Origin: a virus
Taxonomy: Duplodnaviria; Heunggongvirae; Uroviricota; Caudoviricetes
Direction: 5' to 3' (one strand)
IMG/VR virus record: IMGVR_UViG_2896028454_000001
Location: 3,450-67,449 of that record
DNA: 64,000 bases
The position numbers and the translations under genes were made by a program. Below are positions 14,352 through 46,131 of the stretch, piece by piece; position 1 is the first letter of the stretch; each line of letters opens with the position of its first letter. The notes beneath the pieces were generated by a model, which worked only from the letters and a program-made list of their open reading frames with translations, was not told the DNA's origin and did no database searches.

Positions 14352-14372
14352 GGGGTCTCCCTGGGTTCGTTG

Positions 14373-14439
14373 TGTAGCTACACATCATGCCATGCCGGAA
14401 GTTGTGTAGCTACACTTCGTCTGATAAACTGTAGCTACA
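14373..14439. promoter_or_regulatory. Operator cluster 1: three copies of the palindrome TGTAGCTACA (two extended to GTGTAGCTACAC)
   Basis: Read directly at about 14373, 14405 and 14430, separated by CTTCGTCTGATAAAC, in the divergent intergenic region. Confidence 0.55.
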
Positions 14440-14486
14440 GAACATCGGGAGGGGAAGCCCGATGATCCCCACCAGGAAGGCCCACC

Positions 14487-23061: not shown

Positions 23062-23128
23062 CCCCCACCCCCCGGGGCGGCCGTAGGGAAGACGGCCGCC
23101 CCCCGGACCAGAAGCGAGAACACCCCCT

Positions 23129-24442
23129 GTGATCACCATCAAGGACCTCTTCGCCGGTGGCGGCGGCACCACCACAGGCGCCCGCAAGGTGCCTGGCGTC
23201 AAGGTCAGCATGGCCGTCAACCACTGGCCGCTGGCCGTCGACACCCACAACCTGAACCACCCCGACACCGGCCACGACTGCGTCGACATCTCCCAAGTCG
23301 ACCCCCGCCGGTACCCGACCACGGACATCCTGTGTGCGTCTCCGGAGTGCACGCAGCAGACCAGGGCGCAGGGCGTGGCCCGCACCGCCCGGCAGGCGTT
23401 CGACCTGTTCAGCACCGACGAGATGGACGCCGCTGAACGCTCCCGCGCCACCATGTGGGACGTACTGCGGTTCACGGAGGTGCACGCCTACCGGTACATC
23501 ATCGTGGAGAACGTCATCGACGTCCGAGGCTGGGCGATGTGGCCCGCGTGGGCGCTGGGCCTGGGCTGTCTCGGCTACGAGTTCCGGTACATCAGCCTCA
23601 ACAGCATGTTCGCTGGGGCTTTCGGCGCCCCGGCAGCCCAGTCCCGCAACCGGGGTTACGTCGTCGCGTGGAAGAAGGGCGAGCGCGCCCCGGATTTCAA
23701 CGCGTGGCTGCGCCCCTACGCGGACTGCCCCGTTCACAAGCGTGTGCAGGCCATCCAGGCGTTCAAGAACGGTCGCGAGTACGGCGAGTACGGGCCCCAG
23801 TACATCTGGCGGTGCCCCCGCGTGGAGTGCCGTAACACCCAGGTCCACCCGAAGGTGCGCCCGGCCGCCGACATCATCGACTGGTCCATCCCCACCCCAC
23901 GCATCGGCGACCGCACCACCCCGCTCGTGGAGAACACCATGCGCCGGGTCCGGGACGGGGTCGCCACCTACGGCCGCCCGGCCGAGGACGGCACCCACCT
24001 GCCGCCGTTCATGACCGAACTCCGGGGCGGCGGGTCCAAGCACCGGCCCATGGCGTCCCCGCTGTCCACCGTCACCGCTGGCGGCAACCACCACGCCATC
24101 ACCGTCCCCGACATGATCTACCCGTACTACGGCAACTCGGCTCTCCAGCCCGCCGCCCGGCCGCTGCCCACGGTCACGACGGTGGACACCTGCGCGCTCC
24201 TGCAAGGCGGGGTCATCCGCGACATCAACGACCTGCGGTACCGGATGCTCAAACCGCACGAGTACGCCGCCGCCCAGGAGTTCCCGGCGGACTACCGGTG
24301 GCCGGTTACGTCGAGCAAGAAGCTCGTCCGGATGATCGGGAACGCGGTGTCCACGAACGCGGCCCGTGACCTGGTGGGCATGGTCGCCGCCCAGATGGAC
24401 CCGAGCATCGTTCCGACGTGGGGGATGGGGTTGGCCGCATGA
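23129..24442 (+). CDS. DNA (cytosine-5)-methyltransferase
   Basis: FAGGGG motif I, SPEC (PC motif), IVENV motif VI, target-recognition domain region, C-terminal motifs. Confidence 0.85.
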   Translation: MITIKDLFAGGGGTTTGARKVPGVKVSMAVNHWPLAVDTHNLNHPDTGHDCVDISQVDPRRYPTTDILCASPECTQQTRAQGVARTARQAFDLFSTDEMDAAERSRATMWDVLRFTEVHAYRYIIVENVIDVRGWAMWPAWALGLGCLGYEFRYISLNSMFAGAFGAPAAQSRNRGYVVAWKKGERAPDFNAWLRPYADCPVHKRVQAIQAFKNGREYGEYGPQYIWRCPRVECRNTQVHPKVRPAADIIDWSIPTPRIGDRTTPLVENTMRRVRDGVATYGRPAEDGTHLPPFMTELRGGGSKHRPMASPLSTVTAGGNHHAITVPDMIYPYYGNSALQPAARPLPTVTTVDTCALLQGGVIRDINDLRYRMLKPHEYAAAQEFPADYRWPVTSSKKLVRMIGNAVSTNAARDLVGMVAAQMDPSIVPTWGMGLAA

Positions 24443-36238: not shown

Positions 36239-36246
36239 GGTTGGGG

Positions 36247-36276
36247 TTGCACCACGGTTAGAGTTCGTGCTTTAAT
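36247..36276 (+). promoter_or_regulatory. Cassette promoter copy 1 (TTGCAC-N18-TTTAAT with GGTTAGAGTTCGTGC core)
   Basis: Member of the 9-copy family TTGCAM-N3-GGTTAGAGTTCGTGY-AATAAT. Confidence 0.5.
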
Positions 36277-36281
36277 TGTGT

Positions 36282-36305
36282 GTGTCGGGAAGGGAAGCCC
36301 GACAC
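36282..36305 (+). promoter_or_regulatory. 5' stem-loop, AAGGGAAG loop (GTGTCGGG/CCCGACAC stem)
   Basis: Covarying stem, invariant loop. Confidence 0.5.
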
Positions 36306-36326
36306 CAACCACCAGAAAGGCACACC

Positions 36327-36707
36327 ACCGTGAGCGAGACCATCCGCAACGAGATGCACGACAAGCTCGAAACCACCCTGACCATCATCGCCGCCGCGTT
36401 CGCCCGCGTGAACATCCGCATCGGCGACCCCACCCGCATCGACCTGGACCACGACATCCACCACTGGCAGCAGGCCGTGTGGGAGTCCACGAAGGACCTG
36501 GCCAACCTGAACACCGGCCACGCCTGGACGTCCACGATCGGCCTGGAGGACGCCGCCAGCCGGTGGGTGCACGCGGCCACCGCCTACACCGCCTACCGGC
36601 ACCTGTCGGCCGAGTTCAACGAGGGCCTGTTCTGGGAGCACATGGCGCCGTGCGAGTCCGCGCTGAGCCTCCTGGTCGACGGGGCGCGTTGGACGGTTCG
36701 GGGTTGA
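36327..36707 (+). CDS. Hypothetical protein (cassette gene 1)
   Basis: GTG after CCACCAGAAAGGCACACCACC. Confidence 0.5.
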   Translation, partial: TVSETIRNEMHDKLETTLTIIAAAFARVNIRIGDPTRIDLDHDIHHWQQAVWESTKDLANLNTGHAWTSTIGLEDAASRWVHAATAYTAYRHLSAEFNEGLFWEHMAPCESALSLLVDGARWTVRG

Positions 36708-36743
36708 TCCTGCGGGGTCCGGGTGGTTGCTCGGGCCCCAGCT

Positions 36744-36772
36744 TGCCCCCGGGTTAGAGTTCGTGTAATATT
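36744..36772 (+). promoter_or_regulatory. Cassette promoter copy 2
   Basis: TTGCCC-ccg-GGTTAGAGTTCGTGT-AATATT. Confidence 0.45.
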
Positions 36773-36776
36773 GGGG

Positions 36777-36799
36777 GTGTTGGGAGGGAAGCCCAACAC
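36777..36799 (+). promoter_or_regulatory. 5' stem-loop (GTGTTGGG-AGGGAAG-CCCAACAC)
   Basis: Same family. Confidence 0.5.
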
Positions 36800-36823
36800 C
36801 CCCGCCACGAACGGAGCACCACC

Positions 36824-37225
36824 ATGAACCCCAACCCCTGGGCCGCCAGCGACCGCCACGCCGAAACCGAGGCCGACCGCCTCACCTGGCTCTGGGGAGT
36901 CCTGTACTACGACATCCAAGACATGCTGGTGTGCCTCCCCAGCCCGGTGCGTATTCCTGCGCTCCCTCCTGGCGTAGGGCACGTCGCCGCCGACACCCTC
37001 ACCGCCGTCCGCGACGACCTGTACGACCAGAACATCCCCAACGACATCCGACAGCTCGCCGACACGGCCCTCACCGACGCCGTGCTCGCCCTCAAAGCCA
37101 CCGGGGCCGAACGCCGCCACCTCACCGAGGAAGCACAGGCCCGCACCCGCGCGGTGGTCGCCTACCTCGGCGTTGGGCCCGAAGACTTCGGAGTCCCTGA
37201 CACCCTGGAGGAAATGACGACCTGA
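36824..37225 (+). CDS. Hypothetical protein (cassette gene 2)
   Basis: ATG after the hairpin and RBS. Confidence 0.5.
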   Translation: MNPNPWAASDRHAETEADRLTWLWGVLYYDIQDMLVCLPSPVRIPALPPGVGHVAADTLTAVRDDLYDQNIPNDIRQLADTALTDAVLALKATGAERRHLTEEAQARTRAVVAYLGVGPEDFGVPDTLEEMTT

Positions 37226-37242
37226 CCAGGCCAAACACGAAA

Positions 37243-37276
37243 AACGCCCGCCCCCGGAACCCCGGTGGCGGGCGTT
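37243..37276 (+). terminator. Terminator hairpin AACGCCCGCC-N14-GGCGGGCGTT, flanked by an A-tract
   Basis: 10-bp stem, preceded by AAAAA. Confidence 0.45.
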
Positions 37277-37400
37277 GAAGCAGAAACGGGGCGGCCTCTA
37301 CGGCGTCTAGCGCCGAAGACCAGGCCGAAGCCCGGAAATGGGAAGTCCGGCCGCCCCTCCCACCAGTTAGCAAAGGCCACTAGCGCCCCTACACCCTGGA

Positions 37401-37967
37401 ATGGAAGCCATGATACAGCAGCCGTTGACTCTCATCGACTACGCTCGCACCCGCCAGCTCGACCCCGCGAAACTCCTGGCCGAGTTCACCGACAACCCCG
37501 ACGCCCTCCCCGAACCCCAGGGTGAGCAGGCCGGGCAACCCACCTACGACCCCGACCAGCTCGACCGGGCGCGCGGCGTCACCACCCTCGCCGGGTTCGC
37601 GACCCTCCGAGGATGGGACCTGGACGACGTCCGCCGGTGGGACAAGCGGCAACCCGACCTGTGGCCGGAGTCGGTGGGGAGCGTGTACACCGGGCAGGCC
37701 GGGAAGCCGTGGAAGCTGTACCCGCTCGGTGCCCTGGACGTGGTGGCCGCGGCCGAGTCGGTGCGGCGCGGCCGGGAGCCCAAGCCTGAGGGGTTGGTGA
37801 CCATGGACGAGTTCGCGGACAAGATGGGAGTGTCCCGGGCGATGGTGAAGAACAAGTGGCGGGTCCAGCACCGGGACATCTGGCCGGAGCCCGCGGGGAA
37901 GCGGGGGCGCCAGCACCTGTATGAGGAGGAGGGGTTGATGCGGGTGTTCCGGGCCGCGCGGGGGTGA
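37401..37967 (+). CDS. Hypothetical protein, possible HTH (188 aa)
   Basis: DEFADKMGVSRAMVKNKW helix-turn-helix-like. Confidence 0.45.
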   Translation: MEAMIQQPLTLIDYARTRQLDPAKLLAEFTDNPDALPEPQGEQAGQPTYDPDQLDRARGVTTLAGFATLRGWDLDDVRRWDKRQPDLWPESVGSVYTGQAGKPWKLYPLGALDVVAAAESVRRGREPKPEGLVTMDEFADKMGVSRAMVKNKWRVQHRDIWPEPAGKRGRQHLYEEEGLMRVFRAARG

Positions 37968-38043
37968 CCTGGGGGTTGGTTGTTGGAGTGTGTGGGTTGG
38001 GGCCGGCGCGGTGGGCGTCGGCCCTTTTTGTTGGGTGGTCGAC

Positions 38044-38073
38044 TTGCACTCTGGTTAGACTTCGTGCAATAAT
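38044..38073 (+). promoter_or_regulatory. Cassette promoter copy 3 (TTGCAC ... AATAAT)
   Basis: GACTTGCACtctGGTTAGACTTCGTGCAATAAT. Confidence 0.5.
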
Positions 38074-38084
38074 GGTCATGTCAG

Positions 38085-38106
38085 GGCGGGGAAGGGAAGC
38101 CCCGCC
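38085..38106 (+). promoter_or_regulatory. 5' stem-loop (GGCGGGG-AAGGGAAG-CCCCGCC)
   Basis: Same family. Confidence 0.5.
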
Positions 38107-38130
38107 GACGCCCACCAGAAAGGCCACACC

Positions 38131-38436
38131 ATGACCATCACCCCGCACACCCCCGACACCAACCGCCTCACCGTCGAGACCAACCTGACCACCACCGTCG
38201 CCACCGCCCTCGACATCCCCACCACCAGCGTCCAGGCCGCCTACTTCGCCGCCGCGGGCCGCGCCATCATCACCATCCCCGTCACCACCAGTTCGCAGGT
38301 GGAGCGCGTCAGCAGCAAGGCCAGTCAGGCGCTGACCGAGACCGGGTTCGGCGCCCACTTCTTCAACAACGACGACCAGGGCGGCGCGCTGGGCCGCACC
38401 GACTACCGGGCGCAGATCGTCGTCAACGTCCGCTGA
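38131..38436 (+). CDS. Hypothetical protein (cassette gene)
   Basis: ATG after CCACCAGAAAGGCCACACC. Confidence 0.5.
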   Translation: MTITPHTPDTNRLTVETNLTTTVATALDIPTTSVQAAYFAAAGRAIITIPVTTSSQVERVSSKASQALTETGFGAHFFNNDDQGGALGRTDYRAQIVVNVR

Positions 38437-38450
38437 TCCACCACCCACCA

Positions 38451-38480
38451 GGGGGTGCGGGAAGGGAAGCCCGCACCCCC
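38451..38480 (+). promoter_or_regulatory. Stem-loop (GGGGGTGCGGG-AAGGGAAG-CCCGCACCCCC) without the promoter element
   Basis: Intra-operon copy. Confidence 0.5.
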
Positions 38481-38502
38481 GACCCCCAGAAAGGCTCTCA
38501 CC

Positions 38503-38892
38503 ATGACCACCCGCACTGTTGAGAACGAGTTCGGCATGAAGATCACCCCCGACACGTCCCTGTCCACCCTGGTCCTGATGGCCCGTCTCATGGCGGAGAT
38601 GGCGGCCGAGGTGATCATCGACAAGGTCGGCACCCCCTACCGGTTCCCCGCTGCGGATCAGGTGTCCTACGGCCAGCACGTGCACATCATGGCCGACACC
38701 GAGCGCTACCTTCGCCGCCGGGCCGGGAACCGGTCCTACACGGACACGTTCGTGTGGAACGCGATACAGGCCGCGAAGGTGGCGCGTGACTACGCGGAGC
38801 GGGCGGGCAGGTCCGGGAACGCGAAGGACCGTGCGCGGGTGTGGCGGGCGTACCTGGACGCGGCGCGGTGGTCGCGTTTGGCCCGGATGTAG
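38503..38892 (+). CDS. Hypothetical protein (cassette gene)
   Basis: ATG after CCCAGAAAGGCTCTCACC. Confidence 0.5.
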   Translation: MTTRTVENEFGMKITPDTSLSTLVLMARLMAEMAAEVIIDKVGTPYRFPAADQVSYGQHVHIMADTERYLRRRAGNRSYTDTFVWNAIQAAKVARDYAERAGRSGNAKDRARVWRAYLDAARWSRLARM

Positions 38893-38902
38893 GGGGGTGG
38901 GG

Positions 38903-38924
38903 GAGGGGTGGAAAATTCCCCTCC
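38903..38924 (+). terminator. Terminator-like hairpin GGAGGGG-TGGAAAATT-CCCCTCC followed by a T-rich tail
   Basis: Directly upstream of a cassette promoter. The same arrangement is seen at about 41723 and 45667. Confidence 0.4.
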
Positions 38925-38932
38925 CTTTCCGC

Positions 38933-38962
38933 TTGCACTCTGGTTAGAGTTCGTGCAATAAT
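38933..38962 (+). promoter_or_regulatory. Cassette promoter copy 4
   Basis: TTGCACtctGGTTAGAGTTCGTGCAATAAT. Confidence 0.5.
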
Positions 38963-38975
38963 AGAGACATCGCAA

Positions 38976-38993
38976 GGGGGAAGGGAAGCCCCC
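38976..38993 (+). promoter_or_regulatory. 5' stem-loop (GGGGG-AAGGGAAG-CCCCC)
   Basis: Same family. Confidence 0.5.
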
Positions 38994-39015
38994 GAACGGA
39001 CCACCAGGAGGAAAC

Positions 39016-39204
39016 ATGACCGGCATCGAGCGCCCCACCACCCTCGACGGCACCGAGTACGACTTCTTCTCCCCCGCCTCCCGCCGCTACATGTCCAAGA
39101 AGGCCGGTGTCGCTTCCGGGGTCAAGCGCAAGGCCCGCCGCCGCGACCGCCACAACCGCAAGGCCGCCGCCCGCGCCTACCGCCTCGGACGCGCCGACTG
39201 GTAA
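39016..39204 (+). CDS. Small basic protein (62 aa)
   Basis: ATG after CCACCAGGAGGAAAC. KRKARRRDRHNRKAAARAYR basic tail. Confidence 0.45.
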   Translation: MTGIERPTTLDGTEYDFFSPASRRYMSKKAGVASGVKRKARRRDRHNRKAAARAYRLGRADW

Positions 39205-39281
39205 CCCGCCCGGCCGCCCCCACCCCGCCCGGGGGCGGCCACCCTCCCCCCACCCACCAGCACCACCAGGAAGGCCCCACG

Positions 39282-39629
39282 ATGACCACCACCGGTCTGA
39301 TCACCCACACCGCCGACAGCATCCGCCGCTCCTACGCATGGGAGCTCATGGAAGAAGCCCGCCGCCAGCACAACGCCGCCCTCCGCGACCTGAACTACGC
39401 CCGCGCCCAGTACCGCACCCACGGCGGCGCGGAGAACGCCGCCGCCGTCCGCGAAGCCGACCGCCGATACCTGCTCACCCTCCGCGCCACCAACCACCAC
39501 GACGGCGAAGTTGCGTCCCTGTGCATGCGTGACGGGCTCGACCCCGACGCCGTGATCCCCGAGGTGGACGACAACTGCCCCACCTGCCACACCGAGGTTC
39601 ACGCCACCGGGTGCGCCTGCACTGACTGA
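39282..39629 (+). CDS. Hypothetical protein with C-terminal CPTCH...CAC zinc motif
   Basis: ATG after CCACCAGGAAGGCCCCACG. Preceded by a different hairpin (GCCGCCCCC...GGGGGCGGC). Confidence 0.5.
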   Translation: MTTTGLITHTADSIRRSYAWELMEEARRQHNAALRDLNYARAQYRTHGGAENAAAVREADRRYLLTLRATNHHDGEVASLCMRDGLDPDAVIPEVDDNCPTCHTEVHATGCACTD

Positions 39630-39643
39630 CCATCGCACGCCCC

Positions 39644-39669
39644 GGGGGCGGGAAGGGAAGCCCGCCCCC
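39644..39669 (+). promoter_or_regulatory. Stem-loop (GGGGGCGGG-AAGGGAAG-CCCGCCCCC)
   Basis: Same family. Confidence 0.5.
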
Positions 39670-39691
39670 ACCCACCAGAAAGACCACCACG

Positions 39692-40180
39692 ATGCCCAAC
39701 ACCCCCGCCGCCCGCGCCGAGTACCTGCGCCCCGAGTACGTCGGCCGCGACGGCGAACTGATCAGCTTCACTGACGCCGCCCGCCGCGCCGGGATCACCA
39801 GCGGTGCCCTTGCCAACTGGCGTCGCCGCCACGACGACTTTCCGAAGGTCGCGAAGCTCGTCCACTTCGGACCCAACCGCGCCCAGAAGTTCATCCCGAC
39901 CGCCGAGTTCGACGCGTTCACGGCCCGCCAGCAGCAGGGACGCCCCCGCCAGTACACCGGCCGCCGCCGCTCTTCCGCTGAGGTGGCTTCCGAGGAGCTG
40001 CGCTATTACACGGCCCGTGTAGAGGCTTTGGAAACCCGCGAGTCCGTCCTTGCCGCGAAGTTGGCCGAGACCGGCAACGCCACCGACGCGGCGAAGCTGG
40101 CCAAGACCCGTGAAGCCTTGGAGAAGGCGCGCGCCCGCGAGGTTGAGGCGGTTGACCGGCTCGCCTCCCTGATCTTCTAA
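39692..40180 (+). CDS. Putative HTH DNA-binding protein (162 aa)
   Basis: ISFTDAARRAGITSGALANWRRRHDDFPK helix-turn-helix-like. C-terminal coiled coil. Confidence 0.45.
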   Translation: MPNTPAARAEYLRPEYVGRDGELISFTDAARRAGITSGALANWRRRHDDFPKVAKLVHFGPNRAQKFIPTAEFDAFTARQQQGRPRQYTGRRRSSAEVASEELRYYTARVEALETRESVLAAKLAETGNATDAAKLAKTREALEKARAREVEAVDRLASLIF

Positions 40181-40192
40181 CCCGCCCCACCA

Positions 40193-40220
40193 GGGGGCGC
40201 GGAAGGGAAACCGCGCCCCC
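40193..40220 (+). promoter_or_regulatory. Stem-loop (GGGGGCGCGG-AAGGGAAA-CCGCGCCCCC)
   Basis: Same family, one loop substitution. Confidence 0.45.
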
Positions 40221-40244
40221 ACCCACCACCAGAACGGGAACCCG

Positions 40245-40592
40245 ATGCCGAAGCACCGCTACGACGAGACCTCAGTCCGCAACGCACTCGCCGTCGTCGT
40301 TGCCGACCACCCCGCAGACCACTTCGACCACAGGTCCACCGCGCCCGTAGCCGGGTGCCGATACATGAGCGCAGGCAAGCCCCAATGCGTCGTTGCGCAC
40401 GTCATGGTGCGCTTGGGAGTTAATCCCCGGACCGTGGCCCAGCTCGACAAGGAAGCCGATGGCGGGACGCCTGTCCGGCTGGTCGACTCCCGACACCCCA
40501 TCCTCAAGAGGTTCAGCCCTGAAGCTCTTGCGCTACTCGCAAGCTGGCAGTGGGCGCAGGACCGGGGTTACGGCTGGGACGAACTGACCTAA
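40245..40592 (+). CDS. Hypothetical protein (115 aa)
   Basis: ATG after CCACCAGAACGGGAACCCG. Confidence 0.5.
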   Translation: MPKHRYDETSVRNALAVVVADHPADHFDHRSTAPVAGCRYMSAGKPQCVVAHVMVRLGVNPRTVAQLDKEADGGTPVRLVDSRHPILKRFSPEALALLASWQWAQDRGYGWDELT

Positions 40593-40614
40593 CCACCAAC
40601 CGAACGGCAGTACA

Positions 40615-40640
40615 GGGGCGCGGAAGGGAAGCCGCGCCCC
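40615..40640 (+). promoter_or_regulatory. Stem-loop (GGGGCGCGG-AAGGGAAG-CCGCGCCCC)
   Basis: Same family. Confidence 0.5.
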
Positions 40641-40670
40641 GACCACCACCCATCAGGAAGGCACCACCCC

Positions 40671-41387
40671 ATGGACACCCACAACACCACCATCACCCGC
40701 GACAACACCGTGGACGCCTACAACGAACTCGACTACGCCGAGACGAACCTTGCGATCGCAACCGAGCTGCTGGCCGCACCGAACCCGTTCGAGGAACGCG
40801 ACCAGGCCGACGACATCCGGGCATGGTTCGAGGCCCGCGACGCGCACCGGGCCGCCCTGGTCGAGGTGGCCGTCTGCACGAACCTGTTCGGTGAGGAGTG
40901 CTCGGACGCCGGGTTGGACCTGGCCGAGGAGGTTGCGGAGTTCACCGACCGGGAGCTGATCGACTGTGCCCCCGAGGTGCCGGATGTGCCGGAGTTCTGG
41001 CCGCCGCGTGAGGGGGATGTGTGGATGACCAGTCAGGGGCGGACGTGGGTGGTGGACGGCGCGGACATGGTGGCGGAGGACACGGGGGAGGGGGCGGCGC
41101 GGAGGTGGGTTGCGTGGTTCCAGGGTGACGGGCCGGTGTTGCTGTGGCGTGGGGGTGGGTGCTTCCTGTGGGTGCCGGTGTTGCGGGAGCGGTTCCCGGT
41201 GGGTGCGCGGGTGACGGGCCCTGTGGGGCAGCAGGGGACGGTTGCGGAGCCTCCGGCGGAGGAGGCTGGGTCGGGTGTGGTGGGCCCGTGGTGGCCGTCT
41301 GGCGGGGTGCTGGAGGGGTCGCATGTGTGGGTGGTGGTGGACGGTGAGGAGTCGGGGGTGTGGGCTCCGGTGTCGCATCTGGGGTAG
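40671..41387 (+). CDS. Hypothetical protein (238 aa)
   Basis: ATG after CATCAGGAAGGCACCACCCC. Confidence 0.5.
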   Translation: MDTHNTTITRDNTVDAYNELDYAETNLAIATELLAAPNPFEERDQADDIRAWFEARDAHRAALVEVAVCTNLFGEECSDAGLDLAEEVAEFTDRELIDCAPEVPDVPEFWPPREGDVWMTSQGRTWVVDGADMVAEDTGEGAARRWVAWFQGDGPVLLWRGGGCFLWVPVLRERFPVGARVTGPVGQQGTVAEPPAEEAGSGVVGPWWPSGGVLEGSHVWVVVDGEESGVWAPVSHLG

Positions 41388-41439
41388 ACGGGTGCGCCGG
41401 GCCTGGTGGGAACAGAGTCCGTTTTAGTCCTGGTTTGGG

Positions 41440-41469
41440 CTTGCCGACCGGTTAGAGTTCGTGTAATAT
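41440..41469 (+). promoter_or_regulatory. Cassette promoter copy 5
   Basis: TTGCCGaccGGTTAGAGTTCGTGTAATATT. Confidence 0.45.
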
Positions 41470-41472
41470 TAT

Positions 41473-41506
41473 GGGTGTTGGGAGGGAAGGGAAGCCCGAC
41501 CAACAC
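41473..41506 (+). promoter_or_regulatory. Stem-loop with duplicated loop motif (AGGGAAGGGAAG)
   Basis: GGTGTTGG...CCAACACC stem. Confidence 0.45.
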
Positions 41507-41537
41507 CCACCACGAACCCTGACCGAAAGGACCCCAC

Positions 41538-41714
41538 ATGGCCGCCACCCGCACCGCCACCCCGACCGCCGCCCCCGTCATCGTGGCCGAGGTCGACGAC
41601 TTCTGCCCCGAGTGCGAGGAAGCGCAGGCGGAGGGTTACAGCGGGTGCGGTGAGTGCGGCGCCCCCGACGAGCGGTGGGAGGTGACCACCCCCTCCGAGG
41701 TGTGGGAGGTGTAA
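41538..41714 (+). CDS. Small zinc-ribbon protein (58 aa; not in the ORF track)
   Basis: Hand-translated MAATRTATPTAAPVIVAEVDDFCPECEEAQAEGYSGCGECGAPDERWEV. Confidence 0.4.
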   Translation: MAATRTATPTAAPVIVAEVDDFCPECEEAQAEGYSGCGECGAPDERWEVTTPSEVWEV

Positions 41715-41722
41715 CCCCGCCC

Positions 41723-41745
41723 GCCGGGGGGTGAAATTCCCCCCG
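41723..41745 (+). terminator. Terminator-like hairpin CCGGGGGG-TGAAATT-CCCCCCGG
   Basis: 8-bp stem after the stop of the zinc-ribbon gene. Confidence 0.4.
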
Positions 41746-41753
41746 GCTTCGAC

Positions 41754-41783
41754 TTGCAAAGCGGTTAGAGTTCGTGCAATAAT
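41754..41783 (+). promoter_or_regulatory. Cassette promoter copy 6
   Basis: TTGCAAagcGGTTAGAGTTCGTGCAATAAT. Confidence 0.5.
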
Positions 41784-41792
41784 AAGGACATC

Positions 41793-41812
41793 GGCGGGAA
41801 GGGAAGCCCGCC
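41793..41812 (+). promoter_or_regulatory. Stem-loop (GGCGGG-AAGGGAAG-CCCGCC)
   Basis: Same family. Confidence 0.5.
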
Positions 41813-41832
41813 CCAACCACCAGGAGAACCAC

Positions 41833-41940
41833 ATGGCCACCACCGACCAGCTCAACGACTACGACGACGACCAGGCGTATGGCCCCGAGTGGGAGTGTGA
41901 CGACTTCTGCGACGCCAACCCCACCTGGTGCATTCACTAG
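41833..41940 (+). CDS. Tiny acidic Cys-containing protein (35 aa)
   Basis: MATTDQLNDYDDDQAYGPEWECDDFCDANPTWCIH. Confidence 0.35.
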   Translation: MATTDQLNDYDDDQAYGPEWECDDFCDANPTWCIH

Positions 41941-42001
41941 CGCCCCCGGGGGCCGGAACCCACCGGCCCCCACCCCCACCCCACACGGAAGGCCGACCCC
42001 G

Positions 42002-42199
42002 ATGACCTGGAACCAGCTCCCCGCCGACGCCCGCCACCTGATCGCCCGTGGCCACGACCACATGATGGCCGCCGCCGGACTCGCCCTCCCCGACCGTGAC
42101 CCCGAAGCGGTTGCCGAATGGGACCGCGCCCGCGCCCTGTTCGACCAGGCGTGCGAGGTGTTCGGTATCACCCCGGACGAAGCCCTCGACCACCTGTAA
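42002..42199 (+). CDS. Hypothetical protein (65 aa)
   Basis: ATG after ACGGAAGGCCGACCCCG. Preceded by a hairpin with a different loop. Confidence 0.4.
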   Translation: MTWNQLPADARHLIARGHDHMMAAAGLALPDRDPEAVAEWDRARALFDQACEVFGITPDEALDHL

Positions 42200-42227
42200 C
42201 CCCGGGGGCTCCGGCCCCCACCCCCGG

Positions 42228-42246
42228 GCCGGGAGGGAAGCCCGGC
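42228..42246 (+). promoter_or_regulatory. Stem-loop (GCCGGG-AGGGAAG-CCCGGC)
   Basis: Same family. Confidence 0.45.
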
Positions 42247-42273
42247 ACCCCACCACCAGAAAGACACCCCGCC

Positions 42274-42984
42274 ATGGACGACCGCACCGCCGACCGCATC
42301 GACCGATACACCGAGTACGCCGCCAAGGCCCGCGGCCGCGCCCGCGCCGCCTACGCGGCCGGAGACACCCACTCCGGGCGGTTCGCCGGGGGACAACCCA
42401 TCCTCCGCGGCCACCACTCCGAGAAGTCCGCCCGCCGCGCCCGAAACCGGTCCGACGCCGCCATGCGCCGCGCCATCGAAGCCGAGAGGGCCGCGAAGTA
42501 CTGGGAGCACAAGGCCAACGCCGCGCGCCGCCGGGAGGAGCAGAAGCACAACCCCGGGGTGATCCAACGCCGTATCGTCCGCCTGGAGGCCGAGCAGCGC
42601 GAGATCACCCGCCGCCGCGCCGACGCCAAGGGCAACGCCGAGTACGCCGCCCAGCTCGACGCCCGCGCGGACGAAGTCACCGCCCAGCTGGCGGAGAACA
42701 GGGCCGAGCTCGCCGAGTCGGGGACGAAGGTGTGGGGGAAAGCCGACTTCGCCCGGGGCGACTTCGTGTTCTGCGACGGCATGTGGTGGGAGACGAAACG
42801 GGTCAACGCCCGGTCGGTGACGGTCGCCGCGGTGGTCGGGTTCACCCACGCCCGTGCCCGGGTTGGCGGGAAACGGGTGTACCGGCTGGCGGACAACCCT
42901 TACGACTGGACGGACACGATCCCGTACACGAAGGTCACCGGTCGCATGTCGGCCGCTGATATGGCCGCGCGGCTCGCAGGGTAG
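42274..42984 (+). CDS. Hypothetical protein (236 aa), helical basic middle region
   Basis: ATG after CCACCAGAAAGACACCCCGCC. Confidence 0.5.
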   Translation: MDDRTADRIDRYTEYAAKARGRARAAYAAGDTHSGRFAGGQPILRGHHSEKSARRARNRSDAAMRRAIEAERAAKYWEHKANAARRREEQKHNPGVIQRRIVRLEAEQREITRRRADAKGNAEYAAQLDARADEVTAQLAENRAELAESGTKVWGKADFARGDFVFCDGMWWETKRVNARSVTVAAVVGFTHARARVGGKRVYRLADNPYDWTDTIPYTKVTGRMSAADMAARLAG

Positions 42985-43085
42985 GGGCGGCCCCGGCGCA
43001 CCCCGGTTAGGGTTCGGTTTCTTTCTCTGGTCGGGGTGTGTGGGGTCGTCTTCGAGGGTGCGCCATTTTTGCTTGTTGATCCGAC

Positions 43086-43115
43086 TTGCAAACTGGTTAG
43101 ATATCGTGCAATAAT
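43086..43115 (+). promoter_or_regulatory. Cassette promoter copy 7
   Basis: TTGCAAactGGTTAGATATCGTGCAATAAT. Confidence 0.5.
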
Positions 43116-43150
43116 AGGGGTGTTGGTCGGCGGAATCCCGCCCCAACAAC

Positions 43151-43170
43151 CCGGGGAAGGGAAGCCCCGG
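43151..43170 (+). promoter_or_regulatory. Stem-loop (CCGGGG-AAGGGAAG-CCCCGG)
   Basis: Same family. Preceded by a second long imperfect hairpin at 43117-43152. Confidence 0.5.
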
Positions 43171-43198
43171 CCCACCCGCCACCAGAACGGAACCCACC

Positions 43199-44401
43199 AT
43201 GACCCTCACCCACGAAGACGCCCGTCTCCTCACCGGCCTCGAAGTCGCCACCACCCGCGCCACCCTCACCAACGCGCTCACCACCGTGGCCGTCGCCATC
43301 CACACCCGCCCCGCCGTCCCCATCCTCGCCGGGGTCCACCTGACCGGCGACGCGGACGGCACCCTCACCCTGACCGGGTTCGACTACGACACCGCCGTCA
43401 CCGTCACCCTCCCCGGCGTGGCCACCAACCCCGGCCGGGTTGTCCTCTCCCACGCAGAGCTGGCCGGGCTGCTCGCCGCGACCGCGAAGGGCACACCCGC
43501 GAAGAAGGCCGGGGCCGCGCCCGTGGTCTTGGCCCAGAACGGCAACAAGCCGACCTTGACCGTGGACGGGTACACCCTGCCGGTCGCGGACTACCCCGTG
43601 GACGAGTACCCGACCCTGCCCACGGCGCCCGCGCCCACGCTCACCGTCGACGCGGCCACGTTCGCGGCGGAGGTGGCCCGTGTGGTGCCCGCCGCCGGAG
43701 GGGCCGACGACATCCCCCAGTTGGTGAACGTCCAGTTGGAGACGTACACCAGGGGCGCCTTGTGCCTTACCGCCACCGACCGGTACCGGATCGCTCAGGC
43801 CACCATCCCGGGCACCCGCGCCCCCCGCGCCCCCCGCGCCGACCTCGGCCAGGTCGTGCGCGTCAACGCCGCACTGGTCGGCAAGGTCACCAAGCACCTG
43901 AAGGGGGACACCGTCACCGTTGGGGTGCACGGGGACATGGTCATGCTGGCCAGCGGGCCCGTCACGGTGGTCACCCGCACCAGCGAGGATGAGTTCCCGG
44001 CCGTGGAGAAAGCCATCCCCACCACCATCCCCATGTCGGTGACCGTGGATCACAAGGCGGTGGCCGCCGCGATCACCAAGGCGGGCAACATCCTGGCGGC
44101 GAAGGGTGAACGGGGCCTGTCGGTGGGTATCACCGTCAACCCGGGGTCGGTGGCGGTCGCTCCGGACCTGCCCGGTGTCCTCGCCCCGCAGATCACCGCT
44201 GACACGTCCGATGCGGACGGTGAGGTGTCCGTCTACTTCAACCCGAAGTTCCTCGCGGCGGCGGTGGGAGCGTTCAAGAGTGAGGACACGGTGACGTTCC
44301 ACCTGGACACGCCGACCCGCCCGGTCGTGGTGACCGGCGGTGGGCACACCGTCAAGTCCGCGCCCTACCGCCACCTGGTGCAGCCGATCAGGGTCCACTA
44401 G
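43199..44401 (+). CDS. DNA polymerase III beta sliding clamp-like protein
   Basis: N-terminus LTNALTTVAVAIHTRPAVPILAGVHLTGDADGTLTLTGFDYDTAV matches the DnaN N-terminal domain. 400 aa, consistent with three clamp domains. Confidence 0.7.
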   Translation: MTLTHEDARLLTGLEVATTRATLTNALTTVAVAIHTRPAVPILAGVHLTGDADGTLTLTGFDYDTAVTVTLPGVATNPGRVVLSHAELAGLLAATAKGTPAKKAGAAPVVLAQNGNKPTLTVDGYTLPVADYPVDEYPTLPTAPAPTLTVDAATFAAEVARVVPAAGGADDIPQLVNVQLETYTRGALCLTATDRYRIAQATIPGTRAPRAPRADLGQVVRVNAALVGKVTKHLKGDTVTVGVHGDMVMLASGPVTVVTRTSEDEFPAVEKAIPTTIPMSVTVDHKAVAAAITKAGNILAAKGERGLSVGITVNPGSVAVAPDLPGVLAPQITADTSDADGEVSVYFNPKFLAAAVGAFKSEDTVTFHLDTPTRPVVVTGGGHTVKSAPYRHLVQPIRVH

Positions 44402-44479
44402 CCCCCCGAGCGCGCGCGGCCCCGCCCCGCTCGGGGCCGCGCCCCCGCCCCCTCCCCGCACCAGAACAGGACCCCCGTC

Positions 44480-45256
44480 ATGCGCACCCTCACCGAACTC
44501 CCGCCCGTCGTCCACAAGCCCGGGGACACGATCCTCGCCCGGCACTGGTTCCGGTGGGCCCCCGCGACCATCCTCGAAACTGTGGACCGGCCCGCGACGA
44601 ACCTCGCCGGGGAACCGACCGGCGGCCAGTTGCGCGGGTACATCGTCCGGTTCCTGCCCGGTGGTCTGGTGGACTCCCGGCTCACCACCGAGGTCAAGGA
44701 GTTCCCCCGACTCGACCCGGCCCGGTACCCGCTCCGGCAGACGCGCGCTCTGGTCGCCGCGTTCCGCACCTTCCCGGCGGTGTTCCCGACCACCGGCCCC
44801 GAGCGGGTGCACCCGGCGACGTTGCGCGCGTTGGCCCGCCGCGGGTTCGCCGCCCAAGCGCCGGGCGGGGTGTGGGAGGCAACCCGGGCGGGGCGTGACG
44901 CGTTCCTGGCGCTGGTGCCGGTTACGGCGGCGTGGGAGTTGGTGAGGGCGGACCTGCCCGCGGACGGTGACCTGTACGAGGCCGCTGGGCGGTGGGTGGG
45001 GGTGATCGGTGACGCGCAGGCGCGGGTGCGTGAGGTGGCGGCCGAGGCGGGGGAGTTCATCCCGCACCTGGTGACGGTGGCCCGGGTGGAGAACGTGAGC
45101 CGGGGGTGGTCGTCGAACGGGGCGCATGAGCGGTGGATCAGTCGGCCTGTGTGGTGGGTGCGGTGTCATACGTGCGGGCATGTGGTGGCGGTTGACGGTA
45201 CGGCTGGGGCTGCGCGGGCGCGGGGGGAGAGGGCGGCGCATCTGGTGGTGGGGTGA
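44480..45256 (+). CDS. Hypothetical protein (258 aa)
   Basis: ORF. Confidence 0.5.
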   Translation: MRTLTELPPVVHKPGDTILARHWFRWAPATILETVDRPATNLAGEPTGGQLRGYIVRFLPGGLVDSRLTTEVKEFPRLDPARYPLRQTRALVAAFRTFPAVFPTTGPERVHPATLRALARRGFAAQAPGGVWEATRAGRDAFLALVPVTAAWELVRADLPADGDLYEAAGRWVGVIGDAQARVREVAAEAGEFIPHLVTVARVENVSRGWSSNGAHERWISRPVWWVRCHTCGHVVAVDGTAGAARARGERAAHLVVG

Positions 45257-45263
45257 TCCCGAT

Positions 45264-45293
45264 TTGCCAACTGGTTAGAGTTCGTGTAATAAT
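45264..45293 (+). promoter_or_regulatory. Cassette promoter copy 8
   Basis: TTGCCAactGGTTAGAGTTCGTGTAATAAT. Confidence 0.5.
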
Positions 45294-45295
45294 AA

Positions 45296-45333
45296 GGGTG
45301 TTGGGGCGGAAGGGAAGCCGCCCCAACATCACC
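45296..45333 (+). promoter_or_regulatory. Stem-loop (..TTGGGGCGG-AAGGGAAG-CCGCCCCAA..)
   Basis: Same family, extended stem. Confidence 0.5.
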
Positions 45334-45352
45334 CCACCAGAAAGGCCACCCC

Positions 45353-45655
45353 ATGTCCGTCAACTTCAACAACGGCACCGACTGCGTCAACTTCTCCAAC
45401 ACCAACGCGGTCGCCGTCCTGCGGGCCCTCGGCATCGAGCCGTTCGACGAGTGCGGCGACCTGTACGGCCAGATGGGCGGCGCGGAGTTCCGCGAGCGGG
45501 TCATGCTTGCCCTGGCCACCGACGCGCAGGTGGCTTCCCCCGGGTTCGAGGACCGGGGGTGGGCGCACGTGGGCCGGTCGGCGACGTACATGCAGGAGAG
45601 GCTTCCCGAGTTGGCGGAGCTGTCGCGGGGGGCGGGGGAGGTGTGGTGGGGGTGA
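45353..45655 (+). CDS. Hypothetical protein (100 aa)
   Basis: ATG after CCACCAGAAAGGCCACCCC. Confidence 0.5.
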   Translation: MSVNFNNGTDCVNFSNTNAVAVLRALGIEPFDECGDLYGQMGGAEFRERVMLALATDAQVASPGFEDRGWAHVGRSATYMQERLPELAELSRGAGEVWWG

Positions 45656-45666
45656 CCCCGCCCGCC

Positions 45667-45689
45667 GGGGGCGGGAAGTTTTCCGCCCC
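45667..45689 (+). terminator. Terminator-like hairpin GGGGGCGGGAA-GTT-TTCCGCCCC
   Basis: Hairpin after the stop, before a promoter copy. Confidence 0.4.
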
Positions 45690-45693
45690 TGGC

Positions 45694-45723
45694 TTGCAAG
45701 CCGGTTAGAATTCGTGTAATAAT
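45694..45723 (+). promoter_or_regulatory. Cassette promoter copy 9
   Basis: TTGCAAgccGGTTAGAATTCGTGTAATAAT. Confidence 0.5.
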
Positions 45724-45732
45724 AGAGGCATC

Positions 45733-45756
45733 GGGGGCGGAAGGGAAGCCGCCCCC
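45733..45756 (+). promoter_or_regulatory. Stem-loop (GGGGGCGG-AAGGGAAG-CCGCCCCC)
   Basis: Same family. Confidence 0.5.
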
Positions 45757-45778
45757 CACCACCAGAAAGGACCCGCCC

Positions 45779-46006
45779 GTGACCACCACCAACCTCCCCC
45801 TCGCCGACATCGAAGCCATCAACACCCTCCCCCGCCAGGCCCTCCTCGACATCGGCGAAGCCGTCGACCTCATCGGAGAGGTCACCGAAGACATCGCCGA
45901 AGGCTTCGGCGACCCCAACGACCTCACCGCCTACACCAACCGCCTCCACCTCCTCTGTGCCGAGAACAACATCAACCCCGCCGCCGCCCTCTACACCTTC
46001 GCCTAA
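45779..46006 (+). CDS. Hypothetical acidic protein (75 aa)
   Basis: GTG after CCACCAGAAAGGACCCGCCC. Confidence 0.5.
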   Translation: MTTTNLPLADIEAINTLPRQALLDIGEAVDLIGEVTEDIAEGFGDPNDLTAYTNRLHLLCAENNINPAAALYTFA

Positions 46007-46131
46007 CACCCACCAGGGGCCGGGCAACGCCCCGGTCCCACTGGCACACTGGCACCCGCTCTCTTGTCCCCGCGTTGCGGGGGAGGCCCACCCGGGCCCA
46101 CACCACCCGAACCACGACACGGAGGACCCCC

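Follow-up and report, generated by a model that had tools for sequence, protein, structure and literature searches.

What is the function of a stem-loop that recurs, with nearly the same loop, in front of one small phage gene after another? This question is raised by a block of genes in a 64,000-nucleotide stretch of DNA, hereafter the window, that corresponds to positions 3,450 to 67,449 of the IMG/VR record IMGVR_UViG_2896028454_000001 (Caudoviricetes). For most small non-structural genes of actinobacteriophages, neither function nor regulation is known; in this block, one compact cis module, which has a hairpin with the loop AAGGGAAG, is shared by about 14 of 18 such genes. We consider, with a probability of about 0.45, that this array is a run of portable expression cassettes in which the stem-loop acts in cis as an mRNA element, providing stable and insulated 5' ends and carrying a loop that is read by a factor acting in trans.

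A hairpin family with a conserved loop

The octamer AAGGGAAG is present 12 times in the window, where 0.77 copies are expected, and none of 100 shuffled sequences reached this number. All 12 copies are on the + strand, and 11 of them are located within 36.29-45.75 kb. A hairpin search together with a covariance model, applied to all 64 kb with filters off, identified 16 hairpins that have the loop (A)AGGGAA(G/A) and closing GG/CC pairs, all on the gene strand. Fourteen of them form one 9.5-kb block (36282-45756), each ahead of a start codon, and the other two are outlying (14443 and 23074). The best covariance-model scores are confined to these 16 copies, the rest of the window scoring no higher than generic GC hairpins. 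An earlier note on this DNA, made from the sequence alone, had counted nine promoters and 14 array hairpins; both counts are correct, and the covariance-model search of the genome that it proposed adds the copies at 14443 and 23074. It had also called the loop invariant. This applies to the core GGGAA and the two closing G-C pairs, which are fixed, but not to the loop as a whole: 11 of the array hairpins have AAGGGAAG, two have the 7-nt loop AGGGAAG and one has AAGGGAAA, and the loop of the outlying hairpin at 14443 is AGGGGAAG.

The position of the hairpins follows a simple rule. Those linked to a promoter begin 0-15 nt past the -10 hexamer in all cases except two leaders of beta-clamp genes, in which an extra hairpin intervenes and the family hairpin lies 34-35 nt past the -10 box. 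Those without a promoter link are intercistronic: the five copies at 38451, 39644, 40193, 40615 and 42228, already listed as intra-operon copies in the earlier note, are located 10-30 nt past the stop codon of the preceding gene. Judged from the -10 spacing, the hairpin is thus found at or just past the expected transcript start as well as between cistrons, as had been proposed. From the end of the stem to the start codon (ATG or GTG), the distance is 19-30 nt in the window, and this linker is G-poor and C/A-rich and carries CACCAG together with the Shine-Dalgarno (SD) sequence. The CACC-type motif noticed before the start codons is enriched, CACCAG-RANGG, with the SD inside, being found 8 times in the window compared with 0.71 expected, 6-9 nt ahead of the start codon. 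Intrinsic termination at the family hairpins is unlikely because the sequence after each copy is C/A-rich and lacks a U-tract; a terminator scan flags none of them on the + strand. In minimum free energy (MFE) folds, the hairpin is retained in 15 of 16 leaders and the SD is single-stranded in most of them, the leader of the clamp gene folding otherwise.

Covariation of the stems in four related arrays

Homologues of the clamp protein led to three syntenic arrays, in Nocardiopsis terrae (L117; clamp 79% identical), Nocardiopsis sp. LOL_012 (L118; 69%) and Nocardiopsis codii CT-R113 (L119; 59%). All three relatives have the promoter and the hairpin at orthologous genes, and the hairpin total over the four genomes is 43-47 copies. 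For 36 copies with an 8-nt loop, aligned without gaps, 74.5% of the stem cells are paired compared with 52.9% after shuffling (reached in 0 of 500 shuffles), and the covariation score is 0.391 compared with at most 0.108 for slid registers. For 43 copies in an alignment made by the covariance model, these values are 88.3% paired compared with 62.1% after shuffling and at most 54% for slid registers, and a score of 0.508 compared with at most 0.114. All 43 covariance-model matches have the orientation of the genes. The three pairs adjoining the closing GG/CC (stem positions 3-5) are G-C in 27 and C-G in 13 copies, G-C in 24 and C-G in 15, and G-C in 19, C-G in 9 and U-A in 8, respectively.

Compensated differences are also seen at orthologous sites. 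The hairpin ahead of the DUF3560 gene has the stem GCCGGG/CCCGGC in the window and GGTCGGG/CCCGACC in L119, and the one ahead of the 40671 orthologue reads GGGGCGCGG in the window and GGGGGCGGG in L118. The covariation and these compensated differences therefore indicate that pairing is under selection and that the loop is frozen, and the earlier claim of covarying stems, now based on machine alignments of 36 and 43 copies, stands. Over 47 copies in the four genomes, the 8-nt loop is near-invariant, and the stems, which are 3-14 bp long (8 bp or less in about 29 of the 47 copies), and the true SDs drift freely. Sites at which a protein specifically recognises an RNA classically show this combination of a covarying stem and a fixed loop.

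Promoters and leaders of the cassettes

The core GGTTAGAGTTCGTG (with at most two mismatches) occurs in nine copies together with a -35 box (TTGC) and a -10 box (TG-N-AATAAT); the pattern in the window is the sigma-70-like TTGCA-N4-GGTTAGAGTTCGTG-N-AATAAT. A blind scan with the sigma-70 consensus gave five sites compared with 0.5 expected, four of which are array promoters on the gene strand, all with a TG extended -10. Across the four genomes, 30 promoters define the consensus TTGCannctGGTTAGagTTcgTGnAATAaT: the -35 box is TTGCA, often with CGAC ahead of it, the -10 box is AATAAT or AATATT, and the spacer elements GGTTAG, TT and TG (GGTTAG-N2-TT-N2-TG) are kept even in the most diverged genome. 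The extended -10 sigma-70-type promoters with a conserved spacer, as reported in the earlier note, are borne out by the consensus scan and the alignment, and from their sequence they can be read as host sigma-70 (HrdB)-type promoters.

Since the spacer is conserved beyond what a promoter needs, it probably doubles as the binding site of a regulator. The 14-mer GGTTAGAGTTCGTG occurs within promoters only and never alone. It should be noted that the element resides in bacterial genome assemblies, so that strong promoters presumably need silencing. In an unrelated group of IMG/VR phages with a G+C content of ~57% (L225, L267, L274, L277 and L278), the spacer of a look-alike promoter is a perfect palindrome, TTGCACACACCC-ATA-GGGTGTGCCATAAT. 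This palindrome would be a clear operator and, by analogy, backs the operator reading of the GGTTAGAGTTCGTG spacer. A minus-strand gene of the window (59651-60232), located between those of the large terminase and the portal, encodes a protein of 194 aa that has two winged-helix stretches of the GntR type and lacks an effector domain. It was considered as a spacer-binding regulator and dropped, as it seems, from the gene list alone, to be absent at the same position in L118.

Upstream of most promoter copies, a GC hairpin ends 3-10 nt ahead of the -35 box. Terminator hairpins had been assigned to three cassettes; the hairpins exist (with GGAAAAUU-, GAAAUU- and GUUU-like loops), but a proper T-run is confined to the hairpin at 37999-38025. 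Downstream of the -10 box, the leader takes one of three recurrent forms, AGAGACATCG.., (A)GGGTGTTGG.. or GGTCATGTCAG.., and the form (A)GGGTGTTGG makes an outer stem with CCAACACC, which is located past the core hairpin.

Some leaders depart from the common plan or add to it. Gene 37401 is the sole array gene that has neither a promoter nor a standard hairpin. It is preceded by a multi-stem structure of ~75 nt (37278-37352) with the outer stem GGGGCGGCC/GGCCGCCCC, and one arm of this structure, CCGGA-AAUGGGAAG-UCCGG, has a loop one U off the family loop and is also present in L117 (~4760-4830). In the leader of gene 38131 (38074-38136), a 5' GGUCAUG and CAUGACC are predicted to form 7 bp that span the start codon (MFE frequency 0.48). 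The sequence GTCATGTCAG of this leader is kept in four of four genomes, and the start codon of the L117 orthologue is GTG, for which a U.G pair would preserve the pairing of the start codon. A long near-perfect hairpin at 42985-43051 (-49 kcal/mol for the segment) holds a promoter core in decayed form (GGTTAGGGTTCGGT at 43005) without a -10 box; located just upstream of the live promoter P7 (Table 1), it may be a relic of module turnover. The outlying hairpin at 14443 is preceded by a divergent intergenic region (14352-14442) between the minus-strand open reading frame (ORF) 14079-14351 and gene 14487, in which three TGTAGCTACA palindromes, two of them as GTTGTGTAGCTACAC, overlap the promoter-like site TTGTGT-N17-TAAACT. 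From its sequence, this region looks like a repressor-controlled switch; neither of the flanking proteins matches Pfam or PHROG.

Turnover of cassettes between relatives

The four arrays are syntenic and differ by whole cassettes. Gene 45353 is located past the clamp gene in the window, and its L118 orthologue ahead of it; likewise, a 57-aa gene is found past the clamp gene in L117 and ahead of it in L119, and in place of the 35-aa gene 41833 of the window the other three arrays have an unrelated gene of ~100 aa. Cassette gains and losses between the relatives are bounded by copies of the hairpin. Gene 40245 is flanked by the near-identical hairpins 40193 and 40615, and in L117 and L119 the gene is absent and one hairpin is present at the junction, the upstream flank of which matches, in L119, the first of the two copies in the window (40193). 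This pattern of displacements and indels is the one described for the promoter-early stem-loop (PeSL) cassettes of T4-like phages (PMC4122927).

Distribution of the module

At gathering thresholds, Rfam gave a tRNA match only and none for the hairpin, and with E values up to 5 over 36.0-46.2 kb it gave a single, chance-level match to C4 antisense RNA. A composite pattern, consisting of the loop and its closing pairs followed within 30 nt by CCAGAAAGG, was matched in 185,579 species genomes only by two related Nocardiopsis phage-like contigs (N. codii and LOL_012); the element is thus not a REP-like repeat of the host, a possibility raised in the earlier note. The composite pattern had 0 matches in IMG/VR and 21 single matches in metagenomes, none of which was accepted as a relative by the covariance model. 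The 116 single matches of the bare 14-mer GGTTAGAGTTCGTG in an IMG/VR scan correspond to chance, and the one 19-mer match (L062) is low-GC coding sequence and also due to chance.

The layout of the module extends further than its sequence. The contig L157, whose clamp is 57% identical, has the same layout made of other pieces: a promoter TTGCTAAATGGGGTGTGTTCGTGGTTTAAT, a hairpin GGTGG-CACTC-CCACC, and then TCATCTCGAC and the SD, and its clamp gene is preceded by a hairpin whose loop reads AGGCAGA. It follows that the AAGGGAAG loop is specific to its lineage and younger than the architecture. Other Nocardiopsis elements have a promoter-proximal GGGGG(G)TGGCAC(Y)CC(ACC) in place of the AAGGGAAG hairpin (L157, 280-330, 3640-3680 and 4210-4260; L160, ~3080-3130; L163, ~1560-1600), and in L157 the sequence TCATCTCGAC is additionally conserved ahead of the SD.

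A BLAST search with one module gave weak matches in intergenic leaders of 26 Streptomyces phage records. The two records inspected, Bogota and Sushi23, have the same order of parts, at the first gene past the lysis cassette or near the genome end: -10 box, AGATACATCGCAA, GGGGG-AACAAG-CCCCC, SD and ATG in Bogota (L164/L166, 30.2-30.34 kb), and -10 box, AGAGACATCGAAA, GGGGC-AAGGA-GCCCC, SD and ATG in Sushi23 (L165, ~2.9 kb). A scan of IMG/VR for AGACATCGNAAGGGG gave 119 loci (L172-L285 among them), at 45 of which a TTGnnn-N16-19-nAnnnT promoter ends 0-4 nt upstream, compared with a null of 1.9%; these promoter-linked loci include a family with ~49% G+C and several groups with 57-68% G+C. GGGG begins a short hairpin at most AGACATCGNAAGGGG loci, and AAAGGGG is itself the SD at a few. 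The look-alike promoters therefore indicate that the promoter-proximal part of the AGAGACATCG modules belongs to a recurrent phage early promoter/leader design. By the covariance model, there is no multi-copy family of AAGGGAAG-type hairpins in the Streptomyces phages or the IMG/VR look-alike groups. A string composed of the -10 box, AGAGAC, ATCG(A/C)AA and GGGG.. recurs immediately past sigma-70-like promoters in many unrelated phage contigs (47-70% G+C), where a short GGGG..CCCC hairpin and the SD usually come next; it resembles AUCGAGAGGG, the initial transcribed sequence of T7 A1, and a literature search for the string found nothing relevant.

A proposed role for the stem-loop, and its alternatives

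The strand bias, the fixed position with respect to the SD and the start codon, the copies inside operons, and the covariation around a frozen loop are together best explained by an mRNA element whose loop is read. A full module consists, in this order, of a GC hairpin ending the previous unit, an extended -10 promoter, a short leader, the (A)AGGGAAG stem-loop, a linker with CACCAG and SD, and the start codon; inside operons it is reduced to the stem-loop, the linker with the SD, and the start codon. A promoter-proximal hairpin would protect the 5' end of the mRNA by blocking 5'-end-dependent decay by RNase E or RNase J, and an intercistronic one would cap the upstream message and protect its 3' end. 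The hairpin would also shield the downstream ribosome-binding site (RBS) from pairing with upstream sequence, and a cassette with an RBS shielded from its context would be expressed in the same way wherever it landed. We infer this end protection and insulation from the module anatomy and from mRNA decay biology, in which 5'-terminal stem-loops and SD-like 5' stabilisers are established (reviewed in PMC3997798). The near-invariant, possibly GNRA-like purine loop would be recognised by a trans-acting protein, encoded by the phage or the host, and the tagged messages would constitute one post-transcriptional regulon that is controlled via stability, translation or read-through. Such a factor is suggested because the loop and closing pairs are fixed while the SDs drift, because the pairing with 16S rRNA is unremarkable, and because sister lineages use other loops. 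A more far-reaching version, which we hold to be possible but doubtful, is that the AAGGGAAG hairpin serves as an address label for a post-transcriptional regulon that spans the whole phage: a dedicated or hijacked RNA-binding protein would switch the block of small genes via ~16 leaders, each of them portable, and the loops of the sister lineages would represent separate pairs of regulator and label. The system would then be a functional counterpart of N-boxB or RegA/RegB and homologous to neither.

Several observations weigh against a loop-read mRNA element. The fold z-scores are modest (-0.2 to -2.8), owing to the very GC-rich sequence. The census of mismatches, 5 G.T compared with 4 A.C/C.A in 371 stem positions, is neutral between RNA and DNA. 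The transcription start sites are placed by -10 spacing alone, and a start ~7 nt past the -10 box would leave some copies with 5-9 nucleotides unpaired at the 5' end, more than is ideal for a 5' stabiliser. The invariance of the loop could derive in part from the structural stability of the loop itself. No loop-binding protein was identified among the candidates examined. Searches of the window and its relatives by tblastn with CsrA, lambda N, T4 RegA, RegB and Hfq gave no similarity, although the test is a weak one; this includes CsrA, for which the loop contains AGGGA and no CsrA-like ORF was found in the element DNA. The 62-aa Arg-rich protein encoded by gene 39016-39204 (KRKARRRDRHNRKAAARAYRLGRADW), present at the same position in all four arrays, was rejected as the partner: homologues that are 76-89% identical are encoded at four other fetched Nocardiopsis loci without the AAGGGAAG hairpin, and there is thus no specific co-occurrence. 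This protein (MTGIERPTT..KARRRDRHNRKAAARAYRLGRADW) is 73-94% conserved over many Nocardiopsis contigs with differing neighbourhoods (DnaB, HNH/SNF2 and HTH_3 regulators; L160-L163), where its gene is usually the first past a promoter-like site, and its sole family match is PHROG 16066, of unknown function. A G-quadruplex was also considered; four G3 tracts are present only in the 41472 copy, and this reading is therefore not general.

Among the alternatives we give most weight to a passive element, though we regard it as unlikely: the hairpin would protect 5' and 3' ends and insulate the RBS without a binding partner, and its loop would be kept as a stable fold, such as a GGGA GNRA tetraloop on A.A and A.G pairs, and/or as a weak SD mimic that parks the 30S subunit in the manner of a STAB-SD. 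The position beside predicted 5' ends and between cistrons, the open SD in predicted folds and the documented existence of 5' stabilisers (PMC3997798) are all consistent with it, as are the purine-rich loop, which could form six pairs with the 3' tail of 16S rRNA, and the other loops of the look-alikes in unrelated phages (AAGGG, AAGGA, AACAAG and AACCA), in some of which AAAGGGG is the SD. However, a passive element does not readily account for an 8-nt loop that stays near-invariant in 47 copies despite drifting stems and SDs, and a stable fold leaves the fixed closing GG/CC pairs and the flanking As of the loop unexplained. As for mimicry, the duplex between loop and anti-SD has a calculated energy of -5.3 kcal/mol, which is that of a random purine octamer and is surpassed by real SDs (-6 to -10 kcal/mol); the reading of the loop as an SD mimic is disfavoured on this ground. 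Moreover, the true SDs in the hairpin leaders vary (AGAAAGG, GGAGG, GGAAGG and ACGGAG) and the loop does not, so that simple anti-SD pairing fails to explain the invariance of the loop. The least probable of the alternatives in our opinion, an endonuclease site, would have RNase III or a phage RegB-like nuclease cut at the GGGAAG loop, yielding monocistronic mRNAs or inactivating early messages at the early-to-late switch. It could draw on the intercistronic position, which is like that of the RNase III sites of T7, and on the G/A-rich motif, which is limited to one gene block and is like the RegB target GGAG. A site for RNase III has to be double-stranded over about 20 bp, or at least about 11 bp, and the RNase III-type processing suggested in the earlier note is unlikely because the stems are too short, many having only 5-7 bp; furthermore, no RegB-like protein was found in the weak tblastn test.

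The hairpin might instead act during transcription, as an attenuator or as a nut/boxB-like loading site for an antiterminator at which the termination resistance of RNA polymerase is set. This view, which we consider quite improbable, has in its favour that the hairpins are just past promoters, that the purine loop could take a boxB-like GNRA fold, that GC hairpins that are potential terminators separate the units, and that a conserved gene for a small Arg-rich protein is present in the array. A further point in favour is that terminators of the phiC31 early region are not known to carry U-tails; mycobacterial RNA polymerase, in contrast, requires U-tracts for intrinsic termination, and no copy has a U-tract after the hairpin. 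The need for antitermination is also not obvious when each unit has its own promoter, and a density of ~14 sites per 10 kb does not resemble that of nut or put systems; a partner resembling boxA was not recognised, co-occurrence of the Arg-rich protein with the hairpin is not specific, and no similarity to lambda N was seen by tblastn, a weak test. Finally, it is very unlikely, in our estimation, that the repeats are mainly DNA-level recombination substrates, for PeSL-like homologous exchange or as a folded single-strand recombinase site, that shuffle cassettes and form an RNA structure only incidentally. Hairpin copies do bound the indels and displacements of cassettes, the wobble census does not discriminate between RNA and DNA, and a hairpin is located just upstream of promoters, as in PeSLs (PMC4122927). 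Yet the strict gene-strand orientation and the constant spacing from the SD and start codon are in keeping with expression signals, the stem differences between copies reduce the homology available for recombination, and the compensatory changes at orthologous sites keep a pairing that homologous recombination does not need. The domain inventory contains no integron-type integrase or other recombinase. The anatomy is, in addition, the opposite of attC, which has conserved stem bases and a variable centre.

The element and its gene content

The window derives from a contig of Nocardiopsis sp. FR26. Its clamp protein (43199-44401), assigned by matches to Pfam PF00712 and others, has a 100% identical counterpart in this strain, encoded on a 253-kb contig. 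The window is part of a roughly 100-kb Nocardiopsis phage-like element, and the array is in its non-structural region; by position this region looks early. The related contigs of about 104 kb suggest a large, possibly extrachromosomal prophage. The G+C content of the window is 66-73%, and almost all genes are on the + strand. The domain inventory includes a DnaB helicase, DpdA, a C5-methylase, the large terminase and the portal, together with SSB, the small terminase, a DnaQ-like exonuclease, Thg1, HAD_SAK_2, Acb2/Tad1 and HTH proteins, and there are two tRNAs, tRNA-Tyr and tRNA-Trp. The array is flanked by a block of PG-binding and DUF6221 genes on one side and by the tRNA and terminase region on the other. 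Within the array, the product of gene 39692 is HTH/excisionase-like (PHROG 66), and the remaining proteins apart from the clamp have no informative family match, as had been anticipated in the earlier note. A scan of about 85 window proteins revealed neither a sigma factor nor an RNA polymerase, which is consistent with use of the host polymerase.

A megablast search of INPHARED gave no near relative of the window, and an IMG/VR search with clamp peptides gave no close one; at the protein level, the clamp and the portal are only 26-44% identical to those of Arthrobacter phages in INPHARED, the portal reaching ~44%. The element combines DpdA (7-deazaguanine DNA modification), the C5-methylase, tRNA-Tyr, tRNA-Trp and the Acb2/Tad1 anti-defence sponge domain, and it also encodes the RNA-repair-type domains Thg1, HAD_SAK_2 and an AAA_33 kinase; the mapped parts of this modification, tRNA and repair set are at 11121-12107 and about 48.9-49.1 kb.

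Table 1. Coordinates of the promoter-like sites, family hairpins and leader motif in the window.
Feature	Coordinates	Strand	Description
Promoter-like P1	36247..36276	+	TTGCAC-N3-GGTTAGAGTTCGTG-CTTTAAT
Hairpin	36282..36305	+	GTGTCGGG/AAGGGAAG/CCCGACAC; leader of gene 36330-36707
Promoter-like P2	36743..36772	+	
Hairpin	36772..36804	+	12-13 bp stem, 7-nt loop AGGGAAG; leader of gene 36824-37225
Promoter-like P3	38044..38073	+	Terminator-like hairpin with T-run ahead, at 37999-38025
Hairpin	38085..38106	+	GGCGGGG/AAGGGAAG/CCCCGCC; leader of gene 38131-38436
Intra-operon hairpin	38451..38480	+	11 bp stem; between genes 38131 and 38503
Promoter-like P4	38933..38962	+	Hairpin 38899-38927 ahead
Hairpin	38976..38993	+	GGGGG/AAGGGAAG/CCCCC; leader of 62-aa Arg-rich protein gene 39016-39204
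Intra-operon hairpin	39644..39669	+	Ahead of gene 39692-40180
Intra-operon hairpin	40193..40220	+	Loop AAGGGAAA; ahead of gene 40245; near-twin of 40615 copy
Intra-operon hairpin	40615..40640	+	Ahead of gene 40671-41387
Promoter-like P5	41441..41470	+	
Hairpin, bulged and imperfect	41472..41509	+	Outer GGGUGUUGG/CCAACACCC, inner GGG/AAGGGAAG/CCC; leader of gene 41538-41714
Promoter-like P6	41754..41783	+	Hairpin 41723-41747 ahead
Hairpin	41793..41812	+	GGCGGG/AAGGGAAG/CCCGCC; leader of gene 41833-41940
Intra-operon hairpin	42228..42246	+	7-nt loop AGGGAAG; ahead of DUF3560 gene 42274-42984
Promoter-like P7	43086..43115	+	Preceded by long hairpin 42985-43051 with decayed core 43005-43018
Hairpin	43151..43170	+	CCGGGG/AAGGGAAG/CCCCGG; leader of beta-clamp gene 43199-44401; extra hairpin about 43119-43148 ahead
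Promoter-like P8	45264..45293	+	
Hairpin	45297..45330	+	13 bp stem; leader of gene 45353-45655
Promoter-like P9	45694..45723	+	Hairpin 45664-45693 ahead
Hairpin	45733..45756	+	GGGGGCGG/AAGGGAAG/CCGCCCCC; leader of gene 45779-46006
Outlying hairpin	14443..14464	+	Loop AGGGGAAG; past promoter-like site that TGTAGCTACA palindromes overlap; leader of gene 14487-14702
Outlying hairpin	23074..23102	+	Loop AGGGAAG, closing pair U-A; ahead of C5-methylase gene 23129-24442
CACCAG-RANGG (example)	36310..36320	+	Other copies at 14470, 38113, 39264, 40227, 43180, 45335 and 45760

Implications

If the loop-read mRNA element is verified, it will be, as far as the literature search and Rfam show, the first RNA-level regulon described for an actinophage. 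It would also provide a natural part, composed of promoter, insulator hairpin and RBS, for engineering in high-GC actinomycetes, as well as a counterpart in actinobacteria of the PeSL model, according to which gene shuffling is driven by repeated regulatory cassettes. Should the hairpin turn out to be a passive stabiliser, the array would still present a clean modular leader design, albeit a less surprising one.

Comparison with known systems

The PeSL cassettes of T4-like phages (Arbiol et al. 2010, PMC2839356; Comeau et al. 2014, PMC4122927) resemble the array in being repeated units that combine a sigma-70 promoter close to consensus with a stem-loop, an SD and a start codon and that are interspersed, in a plastic region, with small ORFs whose function is unknown, the promoters here numbering nine in the window and 30 over the four genomes. 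In both systems a stem-loop is located directly upstream of the promoter (in most copies here, with a T-run in only one), and close relatives differ by indels and replacements that are bounded by units. However, the stem-loop of a PeSL precedes the promoter and is interpreted as a terminator, whereas the defining hairpin of the array is in the leader downstream of it, is also present without a promoter in operons, and has an invariant 8-nt loop and covarying stems. The host phylum and the phage group are also unrelated, and there is no sequence similarity.

Closer in terms of host are the start-associated sequences (SAS) and extended SAS (ESAS) of Cluster K mycobacteriophages (Pope et al. 2011, PMC3203893), which also come from actinobacteriophages. 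There are 11-19 SAS copies per genome, in one orientation, at non-structural genes and a few bases ahead of the starts; the conserved sequence holds the SD yet exceeds the part that pairs with 16S rRNA, as does CACCAG-RANGG in the array, and an inverted repeat is located just upstream of about half of the SAS copies. The ESAS has conserved arms and a variable spacer, departures from its sequence break the pairing, and the authors preferred a site for a DNA-binding protein; the same paper mentions the stoperator family, which is considered below (PMC3203893). The SAS is the 13-bp GGGATAGGAGCCC, 3-7 bp ahead of starts, in contrast to CACCAG-RANGG at 6-9 nt, and the 17-bp inverted repeats of the ESAS have conserved arms, whereas the array combines an invariant centre with arms that vary and covary.

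The array can be likened to the nut/boxB sites of lambda in its short purine-loop hairpins past early promoters, its lineage-specific loop with a variable stem, and a nearby gene for a small Arg-rich protein. It differs in having about 14 copies per 10 kb instead of 2 and loops of 7-8 nt instead of 5, and no boxA was recognised, no N homologue was found, and the Arg-rich protein is not specific to elements with the hairpin. The 5' stabilisers of Gram-positive bacteria and their phages, among them the STAB-SD of cryIIIA, can be compared with the array for a 5'-proximal hairpin and/or an SD-like polypurine stretch that precedes the real SD of highly expressed messages (PMC3997798). The SP82 polypurine stabiliser is a further case. 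Unlike the array hairpins, the known stabilisers are single-copy and do not form a family with a fixed loop; the array loop pairs weakly with the anti-SD and is found between cistrons as well.

The stoperators of L5 and further phages of Cluster A are 13-bp asymmetric repressor sites with many intergenic copies in one orientation, one of which overlaps the early promoter. A site lying over an early promoter is paralleled by the promoter spacer GGTTAGAGTTCGTG, and the likeness therefore concerns the promoter part and not the hairpin; GGTTAGAGTTCGTG differs in occurring within promoters only, and no repressor was identified. The conserved inverted repeats (CIRs) of phiC31 are repressor operators with a conserved sequence and are not known as covarying hairpins. 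Integron attC sites are imperfect palindromes with conserved R and L boxes at the base of the stem, extrahelical bases and a variable centre, and are acted upon by the integrase IntI; in the array, by contrast, the stems are mostly perfect and the centre is conserved, and the domain inventory contains no integrase. As the array element lacks at least one tested defining feature of each of the families that are defined by sequence, it is a member of none of them. It is a set of repeated regulatory cassettes in a plastic region of a phage, set apart by a family of RNA-type hairpins with a fixed loop.

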